Source: an actinobacterium acAMD-2
Lineage (GTDB): Bacteria; Actinomycetota; Actinomycetes; UBA12327
NCBI GenBank assembly: GCA_000754455.1
Contig: JNSE01000033.1
Location: forward strand, 20,012-84,011
DNA: 64,000 bases
Reading direction: 5' to 3'
Each line of letters starts with the position of its first letter. The stretch's first letter is position 1. This document shows positions 56,522 to 64,000 of the stretch, in pieces. The translations under genes were made by a program, and so were the position numbers. Below the pieces are notes generated by a model. It saw only the letters and a list, made by a program, of their open reading frames with translations, was not told the DNA's origin and made no database searches.

Positions 56522-56614
56522 GGAGGCGTCGCCTAGTCCGGTCTATGGCGCCGCACTGCTAATGCGGTTTGGGTTTATCGCCCATCGAGAGTTCAAATCT
56601 CTCCGCCTCCGCCA
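56522..56614 (+). tRNA. tRNA-Ser (anticodon GCT), CCA encoded
   Basis: GGAGGCG acceptor stem, anticodon loop CTGCTAA, long variable arm, T-arm GAGAGTTCAAATCTCTC and 3' CGCCTCCGCCA. Confidence 0.9.
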
Positions 56615-56781: not shown

Positions 56782-56867
56782 CCTCACCGCGTCGCAAACC
56801 GAGCGCTCACGCCTGCTGATGGTTGGTCATGCGCGCGCCTGTATGCTTTCGCAGGCTTCACAGCCAC

Positions 56868-56940
56868 GCGCCTGTAGCTCAACGGATAGAGCATCTGACT
56901 ACGGATCAGAAGGTTTGGGGTTCGAATCCCTACAGGCGCA
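56868..56940 (+). tRNA. tRNA-Arg (anticodon ACG)
   Basis: GCGCCTGTAGCTCAACGGATAGAGCATCTGACTACGGATCAGAAGGTTTGGGGTTCGAATCCCTACAGGCGCA. Anticodon loop is CTACGGA. CCA is not encoded. Confidence 0.9.
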
Positions 56941-56956
56941 CTCTTCATTCCACGGA

Positions 56957-57697
56957 CTAGGAAGCGGCGATCACGCGTCGGGTAGGTCCAAGCGGGCGAG
57001 CCGAATCCAAAGCGCTGATTACGGCCTCTACGGACTCCGCAGTCGATTGCCGATCAGTCCACACGTCAACGTCATAGACCAGACCGTGGGAATGGCACAG
57101 CTCGTTGCTGCGTCGGGCCAAGCCGCGGGGGCGTCCTTCTAATCCGCCATCTGCGCGGGCTGATTCGCGTCTTTCAAGCTCCTCTACAGAGCAGTGGACA
57201 CCTACCAGTAGGACGTTGGCATGGGCGGCTTGCAAAACATCAAGGACCTCATCGCACCAGTCAGCGTCCTGGATGAAGTGGTCAATGATCAAGTGAGTGC
57301 CCAGGCGCAGATGTTCGCCCCAACTTCGGTGAAGCCCCGTCAATAGCAGCCGTGTGTGTGGGCTCGTTGCCAGTCGCATACGAGGGATTTCATCGCCAGC
57401 AACGTCGCTGACGTATTCCCAGGCTGCTCGACCATCGTGGGGTTCGCGGGATGCCAGGGTGCTGGTATCACGACCCTGTAATTGCACAAAGCTGATGGGG
57501 TAGAGCGAATCCGCAATCATCAAGACCATGTCGTCGAAGGCAACTCGGAAGAAAGCTCTTGATTGATCGCCACCCGAATCACTGACTAGACGTTCCTGCA
57601 GTGCTTTGCACAATGTCGACTTGCCCGACGAACTGGGACCGTTGACCAGAATCGCAAGAGGCGCTTGCTGACTCTTGTTTTGCGAATCCTGGGTCAT
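56957..57697 (-). CDS. chloramphenicol-phosphotransferase-like (CPT family) P-loop kinase
   Basis: ATG at 57697 within ORF 56957..57832. P-loop VNGPSSSGKST, and the overall pattern (LIIDHF..., VGVHCSVEELERRESAR, YDVDVWT) resembles S. venezuelae CPT from memory. Confidence 0.65.
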   Translation of the reverse strand: MTQDSQNKSQQAPLAILVNGPSSSGKSTLCKALQERLVSDSGGDQSRAFFRVAFDDMVLMIADSLYPISFVQLQGRDTSTLASREPHDGRAAWEYVSDVAGDEIPRMRLATSPHTRLLLTGLHRSWGEHLRLGTHLIIDHFIQDADWCDEVLDVLQAAHANVLLVGVHCSVEELERRESARADGGLEGRPRGLARRSNELCHSHGLVYDVDVWTDRQSTAESVEAVISALDSARPLGPTRRVIAAS

Positions 57698-57911
57698 CAC
57701 ATTCCTGTCAGTTGGAGTCGCCGTAGGTCCGCCACTACTTGGTGGTCTTTCACAGGGTAGTCCAGTTGTAGTCGTTGAGAACGTGCGTGCGCACGTCTGG
57801 GATCCCAGCGCTGCGGCCTCGTTGCCCTGCACAACCCGAGGTGGTCAGCCATACTGACGATGCTTGCTTGTGGCCTTTGCGCCCACTAACGACTTCGCCG
57901 GAGGCTTACGC

Positions 57912-58712
57912 ATGACCACAACTGCTAACACGCACACCTCACGTCAACGCGACATTGTTCGACAACTGTCCGTGCTGGTGAGTGTGGTCATTGCTGTTGT
58001 GGTGTCATTCTTGGGATCTGGTGCTGTGGTTGGCACGCCGGTGAGTGAAGTGGCCAATGGAGTCCTTGATAGTGATGCCACCTTGGTCGCTCCAGGTGGT
58101 GCCGCCTTCATTATTTGGGGTGTTATCTACACCGGCCTCCTTCTGTTGGGTATCAACCAACTCATGCCGTGGCGCGCTCAGGATTCCCGTCAGCGTCGCG
58201 CGGGTTGGCTAATTGTTGCTTCGGCGCTGTTGAACGCCGCGTGGATCGCTGCCGTTCAGTTGGCGTGGCTCGTTGCCAGTGTGCTGCTCTTGGTGGCCCT
58301 GGTGGCAGTGCTTGTTTTGATCCTCGCTCGACTTAACGAGCAACCTGCTACCACGCGTTACGAACGCGTCGTGATTGACGGAACTCTTGGTCTATACCTG
58401 GGATGGGCGTGCATCGCCACGGTTGCCAACTCGGCTGCCGCGGGGATTAGCGTGGGAATCGATGCGCTGGGCACTCTCGCAACTTCGTTGGCCGTGGTTG
58501 TCTTGGTTGTCGCAGCCGTCGTGGGGATTGTGTTAGCGATTGGTTTAAAGGGCCGCATTGCACCGGCTATTGGTTTGGCGTGGGGTTTGGCGTGGGTAGC
58601 AGTTGAACGCGCTAGCGGAATTCCCGAATCAACAGTGGTCGCTGTCTTCGCAGCTCTGGCAGCAGTGGTGACTGTGGTTGCTGCCGTGACTGTGCGTGCT
58701 CGAAGGAGCTAG
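57912..58712 (+). CDS. polytopic membrane protein, possibly TspO/MBR-related
   Basis: ATG at 57912 has GGAGG upstream. There are about 7 hydrophobic segments and Trp-rich loops (FIIWGVIYTGLL, LNAAWIAAVQLAWL). The family call is tentative. Confidence 0.4.
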   Translation: MTTTANTHTSRQRDIVRQLSVLVSVVIAVVVSFLGSGAVVGTPVSEVANGVLDSDATLVAPGGAAFIIWGVIYTGLLLLGINQLMPWRAQDSRQRRAGWLIVASALLNAAWIAAVQLAWLVASVLLLVALVAVLVLILARLNEQPATTRYERVVIDGTLGLYLGWACIATVANSAAAGISVGIDALGTLATSLAVVVLVVAAVVGIVLAIGLKGRIAPAIGLAWGLAWVAVERASGIPESTVVAVFAALAAVVTVVAAVTVRARRS

Positions 58713-58739
58713 CGTAAAGGGGATTGGCCCGGCCGCGAA

Positions 58740-59060
58740 CTACTGAGCGAGTCGAGCGGTGGGCTCCGAAAAGATGTCCAACAGTTCACTGACCTTGTGG
58801 CCGGCTTCGACCGGGTGGCGGAATTTCAAACTGTCGTGCAGTTCGTAGTGGTTTCGGCGACCGATTTTTGTCTTGGTGACATAACCGTCGGCTTCTAGGT
58901 CAGACAAGATCGCCTGGGCAGCTCGCTCGGTAATGCCAACGACCTCGGCAATATCGCGGATCCGTGCGTCTGGGTGGCTATTGAGGTAGATGATCGCGTG
59001 GCCATGGTTGGTCAAAAACGTCCATTGGCGTGAACTGCGCGACGATGGGGCCTCAGTCAT
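58740..59060 (-). CDS. winged helix-turn-helix transcriptional regulator (ArsR/MarR-like)
   Basis: 106 aa with IRDIAEVVGITERAAQAILSDLEADGYVTKTKIGRRNHYEL. It is divergent from the 59485 cluster. Confidence 0.65.
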   Translation of the reverse strand: MTEAPSSRSSRQWTFLTNHGHAIIYLNSHPDARIRDIAEVVGITERAAQAILSDLEADGYVTKTKIGRRNHYELHDSLKFRHPVEAGHKVSELLDIFSEPTARLAQ

Positions 59061-59484
59061 ATGACAACCCTACCTCGTAACCGGACAATCTAATCAGCAT
59101 TTTTATTGCAGGTAATAGTTGGCAGGAAGTCAACTTCATCACGGCAACTTCACCTGTCTCATGCACGCCGATTGGACTTGGCTGGTGCGTTCAACTTCAG
59201 CATGTGCGCTCGCGGTCGATTGGTCCGTGGAGTGACCCGAGCTATACCTAAAGCGTGGTGACAACGGTGTAACTCAACCTTTCGGTGGATGCTGTTTCAC
59301 CGTTTGGCTAGTTGATGGCTACAACCGTTCGTTTTAGTTAAAGATGTCTAAAGGTGCTATCGCCTTTGTCCGACTGTGCGATTACGCAGACCTGTATTTC
59401 TTGATGTAGTTGGCATGTCCGCATCCGTGGACACACAACTGTCACTAATCCTCTAGGGCTAGTGCACACATCAAGGAGAAAACA

Positions 59485-59952
59485 ATGGAGTTCGCAAAGA
59501 CCAAGCGTGGCACCTTGCTCGTCGCTTCACTCGCAACCGCCCTTCTCGTCGGCGGCGGCGTTGCATTCGCATACTGGACCACCACTGGTTCGGGTACTGG
59601 TTCGGCCGCAGCTGGCGACAGCAGCCCCGTCGACGTTACTCAGACCAACACCGTGACCGGTTTGTACCCCGGAGGTCCTGCACAGGACATCGACCTGAAC
59701 ATTGACAACAGCAACGATGCTGATCAGTACCTGGCCAAGGTTACCGTTTCTGTTTCTAGCACCTCTAACGCTGGCTGCACCGCCGCTGACTTCACCGTCA
59801 CCGACGCCACCATCGGCGCTGAGGTTCCTTCTGGCTCCACAAACGCCTACGCCGGCTCCGACACTGGTGCCAGCATCAAGATGAACAACGCTGCCACCAG
59901 CCAGGACGCTTGCAAGAACGCCACGATCAACCTCGCGTTCAACGCCAGCTGA
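59485..59952 (+). CDS. small exported protein with SipW/TasA-class-like leader and two-Cys beta-rich domain (hypothetical)
   Basis: 155 aa with AAGGAG 7 nt upstream. Leader KTKRGTLLVASLATALLVGGGVAFAYWTTTGSGTGSA. Mature part has LYPGG...NIDNSN...GC...SQDACKNATINLAFNAS. The coding call is solid. The function is inference. Confidence 0.8.
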   Translation: MEFAKTKRGTLLVASLATALLVGGGVAFAYWTTTGSGTGSAAAGDSSPVDVTQTNTVTGLYPGGPAQDIDLNIDNSNDADQYLAKVTVSVSSTSNAGCTAADFTVTDATIGAEVPSGSTNAYAGSDTGASIKMNNAATSQDACKNATINLAFNAS

Positions 59953-59994
59953 TCTGTTCTTCCGAAGTAATAGCAAAGCCCTAGAGGAGAAGTA

Positions 59995-60963
59995 ATGAAC
60001 AAGCCCAACAAGCTTCAGGTCGGCCGTGCGCCGCTTGAACTTGTTGGGCTTGTTCTACTCGCTGGGGTTTTCGTCCTGTTAGCCGTTATCTCAACCGCCA
60101 ACCGTGGTGGAAATAACGACGGCACGATCGCTCTGCCGCCGTCCGCAGTTGAGCCGACGCAGAGCATTGATGATCCACTGGCGGACCCCGTTAAGCGGTC
60201 GACCGTCAAGGTGGCCGGCACCCCTGTAGAAGTGGGTGTCAGCACCGGTGGTGGATCAGGAACAGCAGAAACCGGTGGCGACGAATTGATTGCTACCGGC
60301 CCTGATGGACAGCCACTTCCAAAGAACCCAGCTCTTGAGCCAGGGGACGCAGTTACTTTGCGCTTTGGTGGGTTTGCTCCGCAGGCCAGCGTGGGAGTTG
60401 TGCTTCGCTCGACTCCACGCAACCTTGGTTCGATTCTTGCTGACAACGACGGAGCTGTGACCTACAGCTTCACCGTTCCGGCAGACCTTGAGCCAGGTCG
60501 TCACACCGTGACATTCACCGGCAATGCCACGGATCTTTCTACCGCTTCGTCGTCACGCATTTCTGCAGCGACTGTTTCAAATGGCGTTAACACCGTGGTG
60601 TTTGACTTCACCAACTCTGTTGACGTCATTGATTTGACGCTGAGCTCGACGGTGAGTGGTCCGCTCCTGCCGGGTGTTTCCCGGACCCTCTTGGTGACGG
60701 TGAACAACCCCAACCCCTACCCCGCCAACCTGTACCGGGTTGACGTGGAAGTGGGAACCCCCGACGTGGCTGGCTGCCAGGCTGACTGGGTCAGTGCCGG
60801 TAATTACCTGTACTCATCCGGCCCCCAGCAGGTGATCCCAGCCAATTCAAGTATTTCGGTCGAATTGCCGATCCAACTACTGGATCTGTCTTCGACGGAT
60901 CAAAGTGCTTGCCGGGGCGCGACTTTCCCATTAACGCTGTTTGGACAAGGAGTGGGCGACTAA
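59995..60963 (+). CDS. membrane-anchored protein; C-terminal domain paralogous to the 59485 protein (hypothetical)
   Basis: 322 aa with GAGGAG upstream and an N-terminal TM anchor (LVGLVLLAGVFVLLAVI). A central Ig-like segment (EPGRHTVTFTG) is followed by the C-terminal LLPG...VNNPN...GC...DQSACRGATFPLTLF. Confidence 0.8.
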   Translation: MNKPNKLQVGRAPLELVGLVLLAGVFVLLAVISTANRGGNNDGTIALPPSAVEPTQSIDDPLADPVKRSTVKVAGTPVEVGVSTGGGSGTAETGGDELIATGPDGQPLPKNPALEPGDAVTLRFGGFAPQASVGVVLRSTPRNLGSILADNDGAVTYSFTVPADLEPGRHTVTFTGNATDLSTASSSRISAATVSNGVNTVVFDFTNSVDVIDLTLSSTVSGPLLPGVSRTLLVTVNNPNPYPANLYRVDVEVGTPDVAGCQADWVSAGNYLYSSGPQQVIPANSSISVELPIQLLDLSSTDQSACRGATFPLTLFGQGVGD

Positions 60964-63900
60964 TGCTTAATGCCACCCGCTCCATTTTCACCGGGATGTT
61001 CCGCCGTTTTGGCCTAGGAACCATCGCCGGTGTTGTTCTCGTTTTGGGAATGGGTGTCGCAGCATTTGCTTACTGGACCACTGTTGGTACTGGAGCAGGC
61101 TCTGCTTCAGCATCGGGATTGAATCCACCTACCAACGTTTCACTTGCTGTCGATGACAGCGCAGTGACGGTTTCGTTCACAGGCGTGACGCCGACGAACG
61201 GCACGTTGAGTGGGTACTACGTGCAGCGCAACAACGGCAGTGTCACCAGCAACGCCTGTGGCACAAACCCGGCTACCCCTAGTTCGCTCTTGTCGCTTAG
61301 CGCCACGAGCTGTGTTGACTCCAGTGTCCCTAATGGCACCTACACCTACACGGTCACCTCGGTCTTGAACACGTGGAAAGCAACGAGTGAGCCAAGCTCC
61401 TCTCTGGTCGTCACTGGTGACACTCATGCGCCGAGCCAAGTTGTCTCCATGACGAGCTCGAATGCACTTAAGACGGGTAACACGATTTACTTCCGCGCTG
61501 CTGCTGCTGGGTCTTTGACCTTGAGCGCAGCGGTGACCGATGGCATCTCCGGCCCAGCCTCAGCGACCTTCCCAGCGATCTCAACCACTGGTTGGACTCA
61601 CGCCAGTGAAACCGTTACCACTGGATCGGGCACCAACCCGAAGACCTTTACCTCGAGTACTTTCACGTGGAACGCGGATGCTGCCACGCCAAGTACCTAT
61701 GGAGTCGTTGGTAAAGACGTGGTGGGCAACCAAACCACGACAGACTTAACTTTCGTTGCAGACAACGCTGGGCCTACGGGCGGAACCTTGACCGTGAATG
61801 GCACGACGGGTACCTCAGATGGTGCGGTTAACGTCATCACGACGGGCGCTAACTTCACTGGATCCAAGACGGACTTTAGTGCTGACGCAGGTAGCGGTTA
61901 CCTGTCCACAACGCTTACTCGTGAAGCCTCCACCTCCGATACCTGCACGGCTTGGAGTTCAGCCACGACCATCTCTTCCATTAGCGAAGATGGTTCGGGA
62001 AGCGGCATGACGGTGACCGAGGACAGGTGTTACCGCTACACCTTGACGGGCACTGACAAGTTGGGGAATACCTCGATCCGCAGGGTCACCGTGTCATTTG
62101 TTGATACAACGAACCCGACGCAGGTGATGTCCATTTCCAATGCCACTAATGCGGTTTTAGTTGGCAGGAAGTTGTACTACAACAGCACAAGGGCTGGCGA
62201 GTTTGTCCTAAGTTCAACGGTTACGGACGGTTCGTCGGGGCCAGACAGGGTCATCTTTTCTGCCATTGCCACGGCTGGTTGGAACCACGATGTGGAGACT
62301 GTTACCACCGGCGTTGGCGTCAACCCCAAGACTTTTACGTCCTCTAGGTACTGGTGGACAGCAAATCCGTCTAACCCCAGTGGGCCAGTGCGCGAGATTA
62401 AGGCATACGACAAGGCTGGCAACGAGAAAAAGGATAATCTTGAAACAACGGTCGATAACGCTGGTCCGGCTGTTTCTGGTGCGTTGACGGTTAATGGTGC
62501 GGGTGGTTCTGCTGGTGGTACTACTTCGTACACCAACTCCTCGTTCTCGGGTTCGAAGACTGACTTCACGGATGCTGGTGCGGGTATTTCCACCAATGTT
62601 TTGACCCGTGAATTCGCCACGATCGCTGATGGTGTGTGTGCCAGCTTCGATCCAGCCACGGAGATTGCCAGTATTAGTGAGACCAGCCCGGCTGGTGGTT
62701 GTTACCGCTACACGTTGACTGCCACTGACTTGTTGGGCAACGTTTCGGTGCTCAAGACCACGGTCATGGTTGATCTCACGGCTCCTTCGTCGGTGGTTGT
62801 TTCTGAAACTGGTTCGGCTGGGTACCTGAGTGGTTCGACGTTGTATTTCCGTAGTGGTGTGTCTGGGTCGTTGACGTTGAGTGCTGCGGTTACGGATGCG
62901 TTCCCTGGTGCTGCTTCTGCCACGTTCCCGGCGATTTCGACCACGAACTGGACGCACAACGCTGAGACGATCACTTCTGGTTCGGGTTCTAACCCGGTTA
63001 CTTACACCTCGAGCAGTTTCTCGTGGACTTCTGCCGCTGTTGCTCCTTCGGGTACGCGCACGATCAGTGGTGCTGACAAGGCGGGTAACTCCACGAACGC
63101 CACCCCGATTTCCTTTGTCGCTGACGCTTCGGCTCCCACCGGTGGTGCGTTGACGGTTGCTGGCACGCCGGGTACTTCTGGTGGTGCCACGGTGGCTACG
63201 AACTCGGCGTTGTTCTCTGGTTCTTACACCGACTTCGATGCTGATGCTGGTTCTGGTTTTGCCTCGTCTGTGTTGGTGCGTGAGACGGCCACGTTGACCT
63301 CTGGTGCTTGTGGCGGCTTTGGTAACTCCTCAACGATCACCAGTATTTCTGAGTCGGCGTTGGCTACGGGTTGTTACCGCTACACCCTGACCGGTACTGA
63401 CAATGTGGGTAACACCTCGGTGTTGCGCACCATCGTCCAGGTCGATGTCACTGCTCCTACCGTTGTAGTCACCGCAAATGGTGCGAACTCTAGGCAGACT
63501 GGTTCGACGATTTATTACCGTGGCGACCTGGCTTCGTCGTTGACCCTTGGCGCCGCGGTTACTGATGCTGCTTCTGGTGCTGCCTCGGCCACGTTCCCAG
63601 CTGTTGCCACCACGGGTTGGACGCACAACGCTGAGACGATCTCGTCGGCTGCTTCGACCTCGGGCACGACTAAGACGTACAACTCGTCGAACTTCTCCTG
63701 GACCGCTAGCCCCTCTAACCCGGGTTCTTACACCGTGACCGGTACTGACGCTGCTGGTAACACGGGCACCAGTGCGGTGAGCTTCACCTCTGACACCACC
63801 GGTCCTACCGGCGGAACACTGACCGTTGATGGCGTTACCGCAACATCTGATGGCAAGGCCGTACGTGTTATTACTGATGAAGATGACAACTTCTCTGGTT

Positions 63901-64000
63901 CGAAAACTAACTACAGCGCTGATGCTGGCAGTGGTTACGCCTCGACCACGCTCACGCGTGAGGTGTCGACCAGTAGCTCGTGCCAAAGCTTTAGTTCGCT
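60963..64000 (+). CDS. giant repeat-rich surface protein, 5' partial (continues beyond the window); absent from the supplied ORF track
   Basis: Hand translation from the ATG at 60963 (TAATG overlap with the previous stop, AAGGAG upstream) shows no stop codon in 1012 codons to the window end. Leader GMGVAAFAYWTTVGTGAGSA, an FN3-like segment, then 224-codon modules. Confidence 0.85.
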   Translation, partial: MLNATRSIFTGMFRRFGLGTIAGVVLVLGMGVAAFAYWTTVGTGAGSASASGLNPPTNVSLAVDDSAVTVSFTGVTPTNGTLSGYYVQRNNGSVTSNACGTNPATPSSLLSLSATSCVDSSVPNGTYTYTVTSVLNTWKATSEPSSSLVVTGDTHAPSQVVSMTSSNALKTGNTIYFRAAAAGSLTLSAAVTDGISGPASATFPAISTTGWTHASETVTTGSGTNPKTFTSSTFTWNADAATPSTYGVVGKDVVGNQTTTDLTFVADNAGPTGGTLTVNGTTGTSDGAVNVITTGANFTGSKTDFSADAGSGYLSTTLTREASTSDTCTAWSSATTISSISEDGSGSGMTVTEDRCYRYTLTGTDKLGNTSIRRVTVSFVDTTNPTQVMSISNATNAVLVGRKLYYNSTRAGEFVLSSTVTDGSSGPDRVIFSAIATAGWNHDVETVTTGVGVNPKTFTSSRYWWTANPSNPSGPVREIKAYDKAGNEKKDNLETTVDNAGPAVSGALTVNGAGGSAGGTTSYTNSSFSGSKTDFTDAGAGISTNVLTREFATIADGVCASFDPATEIASISETSPAGGCYRYTLTATDLLGNVSVLKTTVMVDLTAPSSVVVSETGSAGYLSGSTLYFRSGVSGSLTLSAAVTDAFPGAASATFPAISTTNWTHNAETITSGSGSNPVTYTSSSFSWTSAAVAPSGTRTISGADKAGNSTNATPISFVADASAPTGGALTVAGTPGTSGGATVATNSALFSGSYTDFDADAGSGFASSVLVRETATLTSGACGGFGNSSTITSISESALATGCYRYTLTGTDNVGNTSVLRTIVQVDVTAPTVVVTANGANSRQTGSTIYYRGDLASSLTLGAAVTDAASGAASATFPAVATTGWTHNAETISSAASTSGTTKTYNSSNFSWTASPSNPGSYTVTGTDAAGNTGTSAVSFTSDTTGPTGGTLTVDGVTATSDGKAVRVITDEDDNFSGSKTNYSADAGSGYASTTLTREVSTSSSCQSFSS
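61419..64000 (+). repeat. tandem coding repeats of about 672 bp (about 3.8 copies in the window)
   Basis: The 14-mer TGTTACCGCTACAC recurs at 62028, 62700 and 63372, exactly 672 bp apart. Module starts (D-T-x-A/N-P) lie at 61419, 62103, 62772 and 63444. Confidence 0.9.

Follow-up and report, generated by a model that had tools for sequence, protein, structure and literature searches.

A widespread, unannotated actinobacterial operon in the freshwater genome acAMD-2 as a candidate for a surface fibre joined by N-terminal strand donation

The window studied here, 64,000 nucleotides of the freshwater metagenome-assembled genome (MAG) 'actinobacterium acAMD-2' (assembly GCA_000754455.1, contig JNSE01000033.1, positions 20,012 to 84,011 of the forward strand), ends in three tightly packed genes, g1, g2 and g3, which represent a large and widespread actinobacterial family that is unannotated and has no Pfam or NCBIfam model. 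Our leading explanation, held with about even confidence, is that this operon builds a Sec-exported fibre whose subunits are joined by N-terminal strand donation, with neither sortase nor chaperone for polymerisation: g1 would make the shaft, g2 the base, and g3 the adhesin or nucleator at the tip. A preliminary description of the same DNA had pictured a fibre subunit, an anchor and an adhesin belonging to the TasA/SipW type of system; the comparative sequence evidence largely bears out the division of roles, and the link to TasA/SipW is weak.

The three genes run in the same direction, with 42 nt between g1 and g2 and the TAA of g2 overlapping the ATG of g3 as TAATG, and a Shine-Dalgarno sequence precedes each start by 6-13 nt (AGGAGA, GAGGAG and AAGGAG for g1, g2 and g3, respectively). 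Both the listing of open reading frames (ORFs) and direct reading of the DNA agree with the preliminary description on this layout (Table 1). The first two genes are deposited as KGA10375.1 and KGA10376.1, whilst g3, which runs off the window, is completed by the Logan contig L001, which is identical to the window and supplies the remainder of the gene. None of the three proteins has a significant match in Pfam or NCBIfam, and the RefSeq/GenBank homologues of g1, of g3 and of g1' (a second small paralogue, introduced below) carry the label 'hypothetical protein' in Kribbella monticola, several Arthrobacter strains and Angustibacter. We found no description of the family in open-access papers or bioRxiv.

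How large is this family? A word-indexed search returned 270 relatives of g1, and an exhaustive search with a g1 profile returned 6304 cluster representatives (50% identity) at E<=1e-3, 2852 of them at E<=1e-10. When GTDB species genomes were scanned for the pattern, 185 loci could be confirmed; they belong to Actinomycetes, Acidimicrobiia and Thermoleophilia/Gaiellales, with the addition of a single MAG labelled Chloroflexi. Word-indexed searches yielded 5 relatives of g2 and 3 of the g3 N-terminus, and the relatives of these two genes were taken from the six-frame ORFs of 87 fetched loci. All-against-all clustering of the six-frame ORFs of 84 loci placed the relatives of g1, g2 and g3 in one superfamily with about three members per locus. 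Also in this collection is a 4.6 kb contig labelled 'MAG: Bifidobacterium breve' (L008, CALQPL010000113.1), which carries an acAMD-2-like g1 (88% identical), g2 and g3, and which is almost certainly a mis-binned contig of the freshwater lineage.

Gene order was counted over 71 independent loci with enough downstream sequence, a g2-type gene being recognised by the lack of the leader motif and by Q-x-x-C-[KR] about 20 residues from the end of its product. Such a gene directly follows g1 in 55 of the 71 loci and a further leader-bearing gene is found in 56, with the two occurring together in 48, in keeping with the three-gene cluster of the preliminary description; in 39 loci, a leader-bearing protein is 300 mature residues long or longer. 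Many loci also hold the second small motif-plus-core paralogue g1' (~135 mature residues), which brings them to four genes, and the order g1, g2, (g1'), large g3 recurs in Actinomycetes, Acidimicrobiia and Thermoleophilia. Judged from these sequences, the conservation of order and motif is far beyond chance, and it supports the view that g1-g3 form one conserved functional unit. Could they nonetheless be three unrelated Sec substrates lying side by side, with a motif that arose by chance or local duplication? The lack of any family annotation tying g1, g2 and g3 together is what such a view has in its favour. Set against this are the 42-nt gap and TAATG overlap, a paralogy that ties g1 to g2 and a motif that ties g1 to g3, and the persistence of order and motif across three classes of Actinomycetota; the comparative data refute the idea, to which we give next to no weight.

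The evidence for a fibre begins with g1. Its N-terminus reads MEFAKTKRG-TLLVASLATALLVGGGVAFA-YWTTTGSGTGSA, that is, a basic n-region, a hydrophobic stretch ending ...LLVGGGVAFA, and then the motif; g3 begins in the same manner (MLNATRSIFTGMFRRFG-LGTIAGVVLVLGMGVAAFA-YWTTVGTGAGSA, with ...GMGVAAFA before the motif). Both fit AFAYWTTxGxGxGSA, and the shared leader recorded in the preliminary description is confirmed by a search of the window, in which only g1 and g3, 2 of the 304 ORFs of at least 60 residues, carry the pattern. In alignments of 24 and 106 g1 sequences the h-region is variable and the motif after AxA is the most conserved part of the protein: A27, A29, W31, G35, G37, G39, P62, G63, C98, Q140, C143 and K144 are invariant or at least 90% conserved, C98 and C143 being invariant throughout. 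A donor strand would show itself in sequence much as g1 does, with an invariant AxA followed by [YF]-W and a conserved 12-residue segment, and the AxA rule leads us to infer cleavage after A29. In an AlphaFold2 monomer model built on 106 sequences, the core (residues 49-155) has seven strands at a predicted local distance difference test (pLDDT) score above 90, and segment 26-48 is coil with a pLDDT of 50-70. The protein ends ...LAFNAS, with no LPXTG. In all, g1 looks like a small repeating subunit, in line with the major subunit of the preliminary description.

The second gene carries the same core in a different setting. Residues 49-152 of g1 align to residues 212-315 of g2 (BLASTP E=6e-6; hhalign 95.6%, E=1.3e-8), with GC...QxAC[KR]GAT motifs common to both, which upholds the paralogy seen earlier between mature g1 and the C-terminus of g2; since it begins only after YWTT...GSA, g2 is a core without the N-terminal motif. 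The AlphaFold2 model of g2 is of moderate quality (mean pLDDT 62.6; residues 28-97 below 50), with its g1-like domain at 189-321. Between lineages, the middle region varies from 20 to ~700 residues, and in L010 a membrane helix and ~100 low-complexity residues lead straight into the core. A strongly hydrophobic N-terminal segment is present in 48 of 55 g2 homologues, typically followed by a Pro/Thr/Ser/Gly-rich stretch. In two independent lineages, L042 (Sporichthyaceae) and L088, g2 has a cleavable-looking signal peptide and its core is followed by LPGTG-hydrophobic-RIVRREK and LPTG-hydrophobic-RRRRR, respectively; no other operon protein has an LPXTG. Taken together, these sequences support g2 as the cell-attached subunit, held by a membrane helix and stalk here and by LPXTG in those two lineages. 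Of the two roles once offered for g2, nucleator or anchor, it is the anchor that stands, with the nucleator role suiting g3 better because g3 would only donate a strand, as TapA does. Foldseek matches of g2 were generic tandem sandwiches (transglutaminase C-terminal domains, RbmA, arrestins), and were left out of inference. At L088 (2730-5625), the 406-residue P0159 is a g1 gene frameshifted into g2, either an assembly error or a pseudogene.

The full g3 protein has 1733 residues in L001, with 0 mismatches over the 1012 residues common to the window, and consists of a leader, a conserved domain of ~100 residues and seven repeats of ~225 residues, whose markers recur every 224-232 residues. The description of g3 as giant and modular therefore stands. 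Thr and Ser make up 34% of the protein, and its C-terminus, ...VYIRKR, contains neither an LPXTG nor a membrane segment. The first domain has no match in Pfam, and the repeats give weak, sub-threshold matches to Big_13 and Big_3_3. Among related loci, 50 large leader-bearing proteins have the same N-terminal module, a.AfW...g.G followed by W...GYYV.R...ACG...C.D...Y.Y.V...WT, behind which the C-terminal passengers differ by lineage: Big_13, RCC1 repeats or novel Ig-like (immunoglobulin-like) repeats. Such swapping of passengers behind a constant leader and first domain is, on the pattern of these sequences, typical of tip adhesins. A large adhesin exported by the same route as g1 was the original reading of g3; its size, modularity and common leader fit this, and a dedicated SipW for that route finds no support.

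The locus thus holds three complementary architectures: strand plus core (g1, g1'), core only (g2) and strand only (g3). As these match the TasA, AbpX and Tafi systems, we propose the following sequence of strand donation. Signal peptidase I would cut after A29 of g1 and A36 of g3. In g1 this would expose the Trp-headed strand Y30-W31-TTT-G-S-G-T-G-SA, with a glycine face (W/T/G/G/G/A) and a hydroxyl face (Y/T/T/S/T/S), joined to a 105-residue, disulfide-bonded beta-sandwich, and the strand would be added to a neighbouring subunit's sandwich, completing or extending it. Being both donor and acceptor, g1 (and g1' where present) would form the shaft. Meanwhile g2, with the same sandwich and no strand, placed on a membrane helix and a wall-spanning stalk, or on LPXTG elsewhere, would only accept, and so would terminate and anchor the fibre. 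In g3, the strand is not followed by a g1-type sandwich, having instead an FN3-like (fibronectin type III-like) domain and seven Ig-like repeats behind it; g3 would only donate, and so would cap the distal end as a tip adhesin, and it may also start assembly, by analogy with TapA. The most economical order would be one that starts with the tip and finishes with the base, the fibre growing at its cell-proximal end. Shaft, anchored base and modular tip adhesin would together make up the complete logic of a polar fibre, and the regulators that flank the operon, MarR-like here and NarL-type two-component systems elsewhere, also speak for this proposal. So do the g1 model, in which the motif is unstructured beside a confident core, and the weak Foldseek matches of g1, among them the TasA fibre form and strand-complemented FimH domains.

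By analogy, this layout resembles that of the TasA-like 'strand-donation' filaments, even though sequence kinship with them went undetected. In TasA, residues 28-38, the first to follow the SipW site, make up the donor strand, in which F29 is buried, and TapA has a similar N-terminus and supplies the first strand (PMC9674648). Like B. subtilis TapA-SipW-TasA (8AUR; PMC9674648, PMC10151520), our operon has two proteins with common first mature residues after an A|x-aromatic site, a leader ending in LVGGG-xxx-A, and an accessory protein with the same N-terminal strand (TapA there, g3 here). Unlike that system, the g1 core has 105 residues and not ~210, the strand is Gly/Thr-rich and not amphipathic, the g1-g3 operon has no SipW, and neither the core-only, anchored g2 nor the 1733-residue g3 has a counterpart in the tapA operon.

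A closer likeness in layout is offered by loci of the wider TasA superfamily, which encode a major pilin, a minor pilin, a tip, an anchor with a pilin-like domain and a regulator (bioRxiv 10.64898/2026.01.04.697558; PMC12337348); the same set is found in g1, g1', g3 and g2 with their adjacent regulator. In the haloarchaeal Tafi pili (TafA/TafE pilins, TafC tip, TafF anchor, TafD peptidase, TafG DUF5305, TafB regulator; PMC11821415, PMC12337348), the anchor, TafF, joins a single membrane helix to a pilin-like jelly-roll, and the tip is TafC (PMC12337348). The parallels with our locus are the paralogous major and minor pilins, the variable multidomain tip, the anchor made of a helix and a beta-sandwich (TafF there, g2 here) and the adjacent regulator. 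On the other hand, Tafi pili are archaeal and often Tat-dependent, and their locus includes a signal peptidase and DUF5305, whereas g1-g3 are Sec-type and have neither gene; sequence similarity was not detected. For AbpX, W2 of the mature protein is described as a 'Trp clamp', and its loci also encode minor subunits, tips and anchors of the LPXTG or SLH kind, for which joining by strand complementation is predicted (bioRxiv 10.64898/2026.01.04.697558). AbpX/AbpA (same preprint; PMC9245690) and our operon have in common an aromatic residue at mature position 2 (W2 in AbpX, W31 in g1), loci with minor subunits, tips and wall anchors, and two-component regulators nearby. They differ in that AbpX strands have an acidic residue at position 4 and bind calcium, where g1 has Thr and no acidic cluster, in that AbpX loci encode a signal peptidase with ten transmembrane segments, and in fold and size; again, homology was not detected.

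Two better-known classes of pili can be set beside these. The chaperone-usher pili of Gram-negative bacteria (FimH/FimG, Pap) also combine shaft subunits that have an extension and a groove with an extension-less terminal subunit bearing an extra domain beside its pilin domain (FimH there, g2 here), but they need a periplasmic chaperone and an outer-membrane usher, of which there is neither here; their extension-less subunit is the tip and not the base, and the systems are evolutionarily unrelated. The sortase-dependent SpaA-type pili likewise come from an operon of small shaft, basal subunit and large tip adhesin, and g2 of two lineages has an LPXTG like a basal pilin. However, g1 and g3 lack LPXTG, a pilin motif and an E-box are absent, and no class C sortase is found in the window or conserved in the loci; indeed, no plausible gene of the window has the TLxTC motif, and no sortase of any kind is conserved in related loci. 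Polymerisation of g1-g3 cannot be by transpeptidation.

Is the operon, then, a diverged branch of the TasA/camelysin family? In such a scenario, g1 would be a miniaturised jelly-roll, its leader would be cut by a SipW-type (S26B, TIGR02228) peptidase encoded elsewhere, and assembly would be TasA/TapA-like. The leader invites the comparison: by eye, LLVGGGVAFA|YW of g1 resembles LALVGGGTWA|AF of TasA, both having, as camelysin does, LVGGG, then 3-4 residues, A and an aromatic residue at +2, and in g1' of L088 the residues are AYFS where others have AYWT, which is a camelysin-type form. For the leader part of TIGR04089, a model with a cut-off of 60 bits, the N-terminus of g1 reaches 15.5 bits (E=0.013) and TasA itself 16.7. 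On the other hand, TIGR04088 (cut-off 19 bits) is negative for g1 and g3, even with isolated N-termini at E<=10, and neither PF12389 (Peptidase_M73) nor NF046066 matches g1, g2 or g3 at E<=1. The controls were positive: B. subtilis TasA, the sequence of which is validated by a 9e-155 match, scores 513.8 bits on NF046066 and 38 bits on TIGR04088, and an actinobacterial TasA-like protein (L041, 7686-8297) reaches 32.1 bits with PF12389, whose cut-off is 22.5. The alignment of the g1 profile to that same actinobacterial protein by hhalign has a probability of 5.9%, and a sequence-profile search of the PDB with the g1 family gave only noise (E>=0.49), with TasA, AbpA and TafE absent. The family assignment made in the preliminary description is not sustained by these models.

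Structure comparison is more equivocal. Against 350,542 PDB chains, the first Foldseek match of g1 is the TasA fibre 8aur_A (prob 0.97), but its E=0.045, TMq 0.43 and root-mean-square deviation of 9.3 are sub-threshold, and the other weak matches are generic beta-sandwiches and FimH pilin domains complemented by the FimG strand. The g1 core of 105 residues is also short beside the ~160-230 of TasA-superfamily pilins.

A dedicated SipW was the other half of the original proposal. In agreement with what had been noted at the outset, motif searches reveal no SipW-type peptidase or sortase in the window, where no ORF of the 64 kb has the [GS]SM.P box-B motif. The contig past position 64000, to which the preliminary description had looked for such genes, shows in L001 a g3 C-terminus without LPXTG, unrelated neighbours and no SipW-like peptidase. 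Among 84 related loci, a TIGR02228 peptidase lies within 10 kb of the operon in two, L041 (86 bits) and L027 (88.9 bits), and a motif search of all ORFs of the 87 loci added a third S26-type peptidase near an operon, in L031, which is the housekeeping lepB beside trmD/rplS. In L041 (6745-8297, minus strand) and L027 (7509-8913, plus strand), two unrelated MAGs, a bona fide TasA-like (PF12389) protein and the TIGR02228 peptidase are encoded as a gene pair 2-3 kb from the operon, and these TasA-like proteins have the canonical ...G(A/T)(L/F)..LFT(D/S) leader (e.g. ...TGALFTDTA). Their proximity may reflect either a clustering of surface-fibre genes or an occasional functional link. Two loci in 84 are anecdotal, and the operon is without a peptidase of its own. 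Membership of the TasA superfamily stays unproven because two of its defining features were looked for and not found; we regard it as unlikely, though still deserving of some weight.

The proposed fibre has difficulties of its own, and several observations weigh against it. Fibres have never been reported for any host of the operon. Sequence homology to any member of the TasA superfamily was not detected with family models, the PDB profile search or hhalign; no PDB structure matched g1 in Foldseek at E<=0.001, and AbpA, TafE and thread structures lie outside the top 50. The proposed strand is rich in Gly, Thr and Ser, whereas known donor strands are amphipathic and hydrophobic (W2, L6, L8, A10 and I12 in AbpX; F29, I32 and F39 in TasA). 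The modelled core of g1 is already seven-stranded, and hence not an obviously incomplete fold. In g2, the model places two extra strands (189-207) before the core, which could fill the acceptor site in cis. Finally, many g2 N-termini look like cleavable signal peptides ending in A-x-A (...AGVAYA|AQP...), with no second anchor visible, so anchoring by g2 may not be universal.

Some of these same points favour a non-polymeric alternative, in which the three proteins would form a hetero-oligomeric surface adhesin complex, with g1 and g2 as small accessory or scaffold proteins of the g3 adhesin, and the motif would be a signal for sorting, retention or modification. It could be an uncleaved signal-anchor with an interfacial YW, a site of O-mannosylation on the Thr/Ser run, or a tag for a processing enzyme. 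A Thr/Ser/Gly-rich motif that is unlike known donor strands and predicted to be disordered, a core that looks like a complete seven-strand sandwich, and a Foldseek list made up mostly of generic Ig-like domains are all consistent with this, as is the lack of conserved assembly machinery in the locus: clustering of conserved neighbours across related loci found no conserved peptidase, sortase, chaperone or ATPase. Yet a plain sorting signal leaves unexplained why g2 has the core without the motif, and why a second motif-plus-core paralogue, g1', is so frequent. Moreover, Gly35/37/39 alternate, are invariant and stand behind a Trp that is invariant too, which suggests a strand with one sterically restricted face and not a flexible linker, and AxA at -3/-1 is invariant, as expected for cleavage. 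We would put the chances of this alternative at around half those of a strand-donation fibre.

One might also think of pilins or pseudopilins of the type IV, Tad or competence kind, matured by a prepilin peptidase: each of the three proteins opens with a short basic stretch that leads into a hydrophobic helix, and g2 of the window reads ...QVG|RAPLE..., with Glu at +5 after Gly. No TadE, pilin or N-methylation family matches were found, though, the hydrophobic segment of g1 is variable, unlike the conserved pilin helix, and genes for a prepilin peptidase, an ATPase and a platform protein are neither in the window nor conserved in the loci. The G|RAPLE pattern is not conserved in other g2 homologues, and g2 was rejected as a type IV pilin; the whole explanation is highly improbable.

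The surface appendages so far known in Actinobacteria are sortase-linked pili, Tad/type IV pili, and the amyloid-like chaplins and MTP. Perhaps g1-g3 represent a new class of Gram-positive pilus, with a 105-residue pilin, a Gly-faced, Trp-headed donor strand, ordinary Sec and LepB processing, no need of a dedicated peptidase, chaperone, usher or sortase for polymerisation, a strand-less base and interchangeable, strand-bearing giant tips, either independent of TasA or too diverged from it to be recognised; such a class would span the Actinomycetota from streamlined freshwater plankton to Streptomyces, Arthrobacter, Kribbella and Nocardioides. We advance the class and its span together, tentatively and with rather less conviction than the strand-donation fibre itself. 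If strand donation is true, chaperone-free assembly of the TasA type would be extended to a whole phylum, soil and freshwater lineages included, and g1, with ~125 mature residues, would offer a minimal pilin for structural and engineering work; it would also open a way to study the attachment of planktonic and soil actinobacteria to particles, to hosts or to one another. Cultured carriers exist in Arthrobacter sp. StoSoilA2, Kribbella monticola, Sinomonas terricola, Glaciihabitans tibetensis and Nocardioides pocheonensis, and Angustibacter sp. McL0619 also has the operon. Should strand donation be wrong, A-x-A-[YF]-W-T-T-x-G-x-G-x-G would remain, as an invariant N-terminal tag, an uncharacterised signal for sorting or processing.

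Table 1. Features of the g1-g3 locus, in positions of the 64,000-nucleotide window (aa, amino acid residues)
Feature	Position	Strand	Remarks
Winged-helix (MarR/HTH_24-like) regulator gene	58740..59060	-	Divergent from g1; Pfam HTH_24 25.9 bits, MarR_2 25.2 bits
Promoter/operator region between regulator gene and g1	59061..59484	+	Holds inverted repeat and g1 Shine-Dalgarno (59473-59478)
g1	59485-59952	+	155 aa; ORF listing and direct reading
g1 signal peptide	59485..59571	+	aa 1-29: basic n-region, variable h-region, LVGGG, A27-x-A29
g1 N-terminal extension, proposed donor strand	59572..59628	+	aa 30-48, YWTTTGSGTGSAAAGDSSP
g1 core	59629..59952	+	aa 49-155, predicted seven-strand beta-sandwich, C98 and C143 (GC...NQDACK)
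g2	59995-60963	+	322 aa; ORF listing and direct reading
g2 hydrophobic helix and stalk	59995..60285	+	Helix aa 15-35; disordered stalk of ~60 aa, aa 36-97 (AlphaFold2)
g2 middle Ig-like domain and linker strands	60289..60627	+	aa 99-177; strands aa 189-207; pLDDT ~70-78
g2 C-terminal g1-like core, proposed strand acceptor	60628..60963	+	aa 212-322, no N-terminal extension
g3	60963 to past window end at 64000	+	1012 codons without stop in window
g3 leader and N-terminal extension	60963..61118	+	Leader aa 1-36 (...VAAFA); extension aa 37-52, YWTTVGTGAGSASASG
g3 conserved first domain	61119..61412	+	~aa 53-150, FN3-like, two conserved Cys; consensus over 50 proteins from independent loci
g3 tandem repeats	61425..64000	+	~225 aa, two Ig-like halves each; window holds repeats 1 to ~3.8 of 7

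Upstream of g1, the divergent MarR-like gene (Table 1) keeps its position in both L001 and L002, and is a candidate regulator of the g1-g3 operon; in other lineages, a NarL-type response regulator and a histidine kinase stand upstream in its place. The region between the two genes contains an 11-nt inverted repeat (59263-59273 and 59294-59304; AACGGTGTAAC ... GTTTCACCGTT) whose arms are 91% complementary and 20 nt apart, and which is a candidate operator. A promoter and terminator scan of 58700-61200 gave counts equal to the shuffled expectation, and found no terminator between the genes. NarL-type regulators and histidine kinases also appear among the other recurrent neighbour clusters of related loci, together with opposite-strand shadow ORFs and a synteny specific to Solirubrobacterales lineages. 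Downstream of g3, L001 shows convergent, unrelated genes, namely those for a 259-residue protein without a family match, an epimerase and an aldehyde dehydrogenase. The first of these (L001 9250-10029, minus strand), just past the window end, has no Pfam match and is absent from the recurrent neighbour clusters of other loci.

Further upstream, some 2.5 kb before the operon, lie tRNA-Ser(gct) (56522-56614) and tRNA-Arg(acg) (56868-56941); the 'ORF' at 56819-57142 amounts to the tRNA-Arg region in translation. The interval that separates the tRNAs from the operon contains genes for a CPT/AAA_33-like kinase, for a membrane protein that is unannotated and for the MarR-like protein. The 282-residue product of 57864-58712 (plus strand) is hydrophobic, apparently multi-pass and without a Pfam match, and its gene keeps the same position in L001. 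A stretch bounded by tRNAs that also includes a giant adhesin gene could be a flexible genomic island. A tblastn search with g1 against 72,556 plasmids gave 0 matches, and the g1-g3 operon is chromosomal. In some soil MAGs, phage-type integrase and transposase genes stand on the flanks of g1-g3-like pairs (L006/L007, 5645-6757 and 14190-15059; L003, 16504-18344), a sequence context which hints that the module is able to occupy mobile or variable regions.

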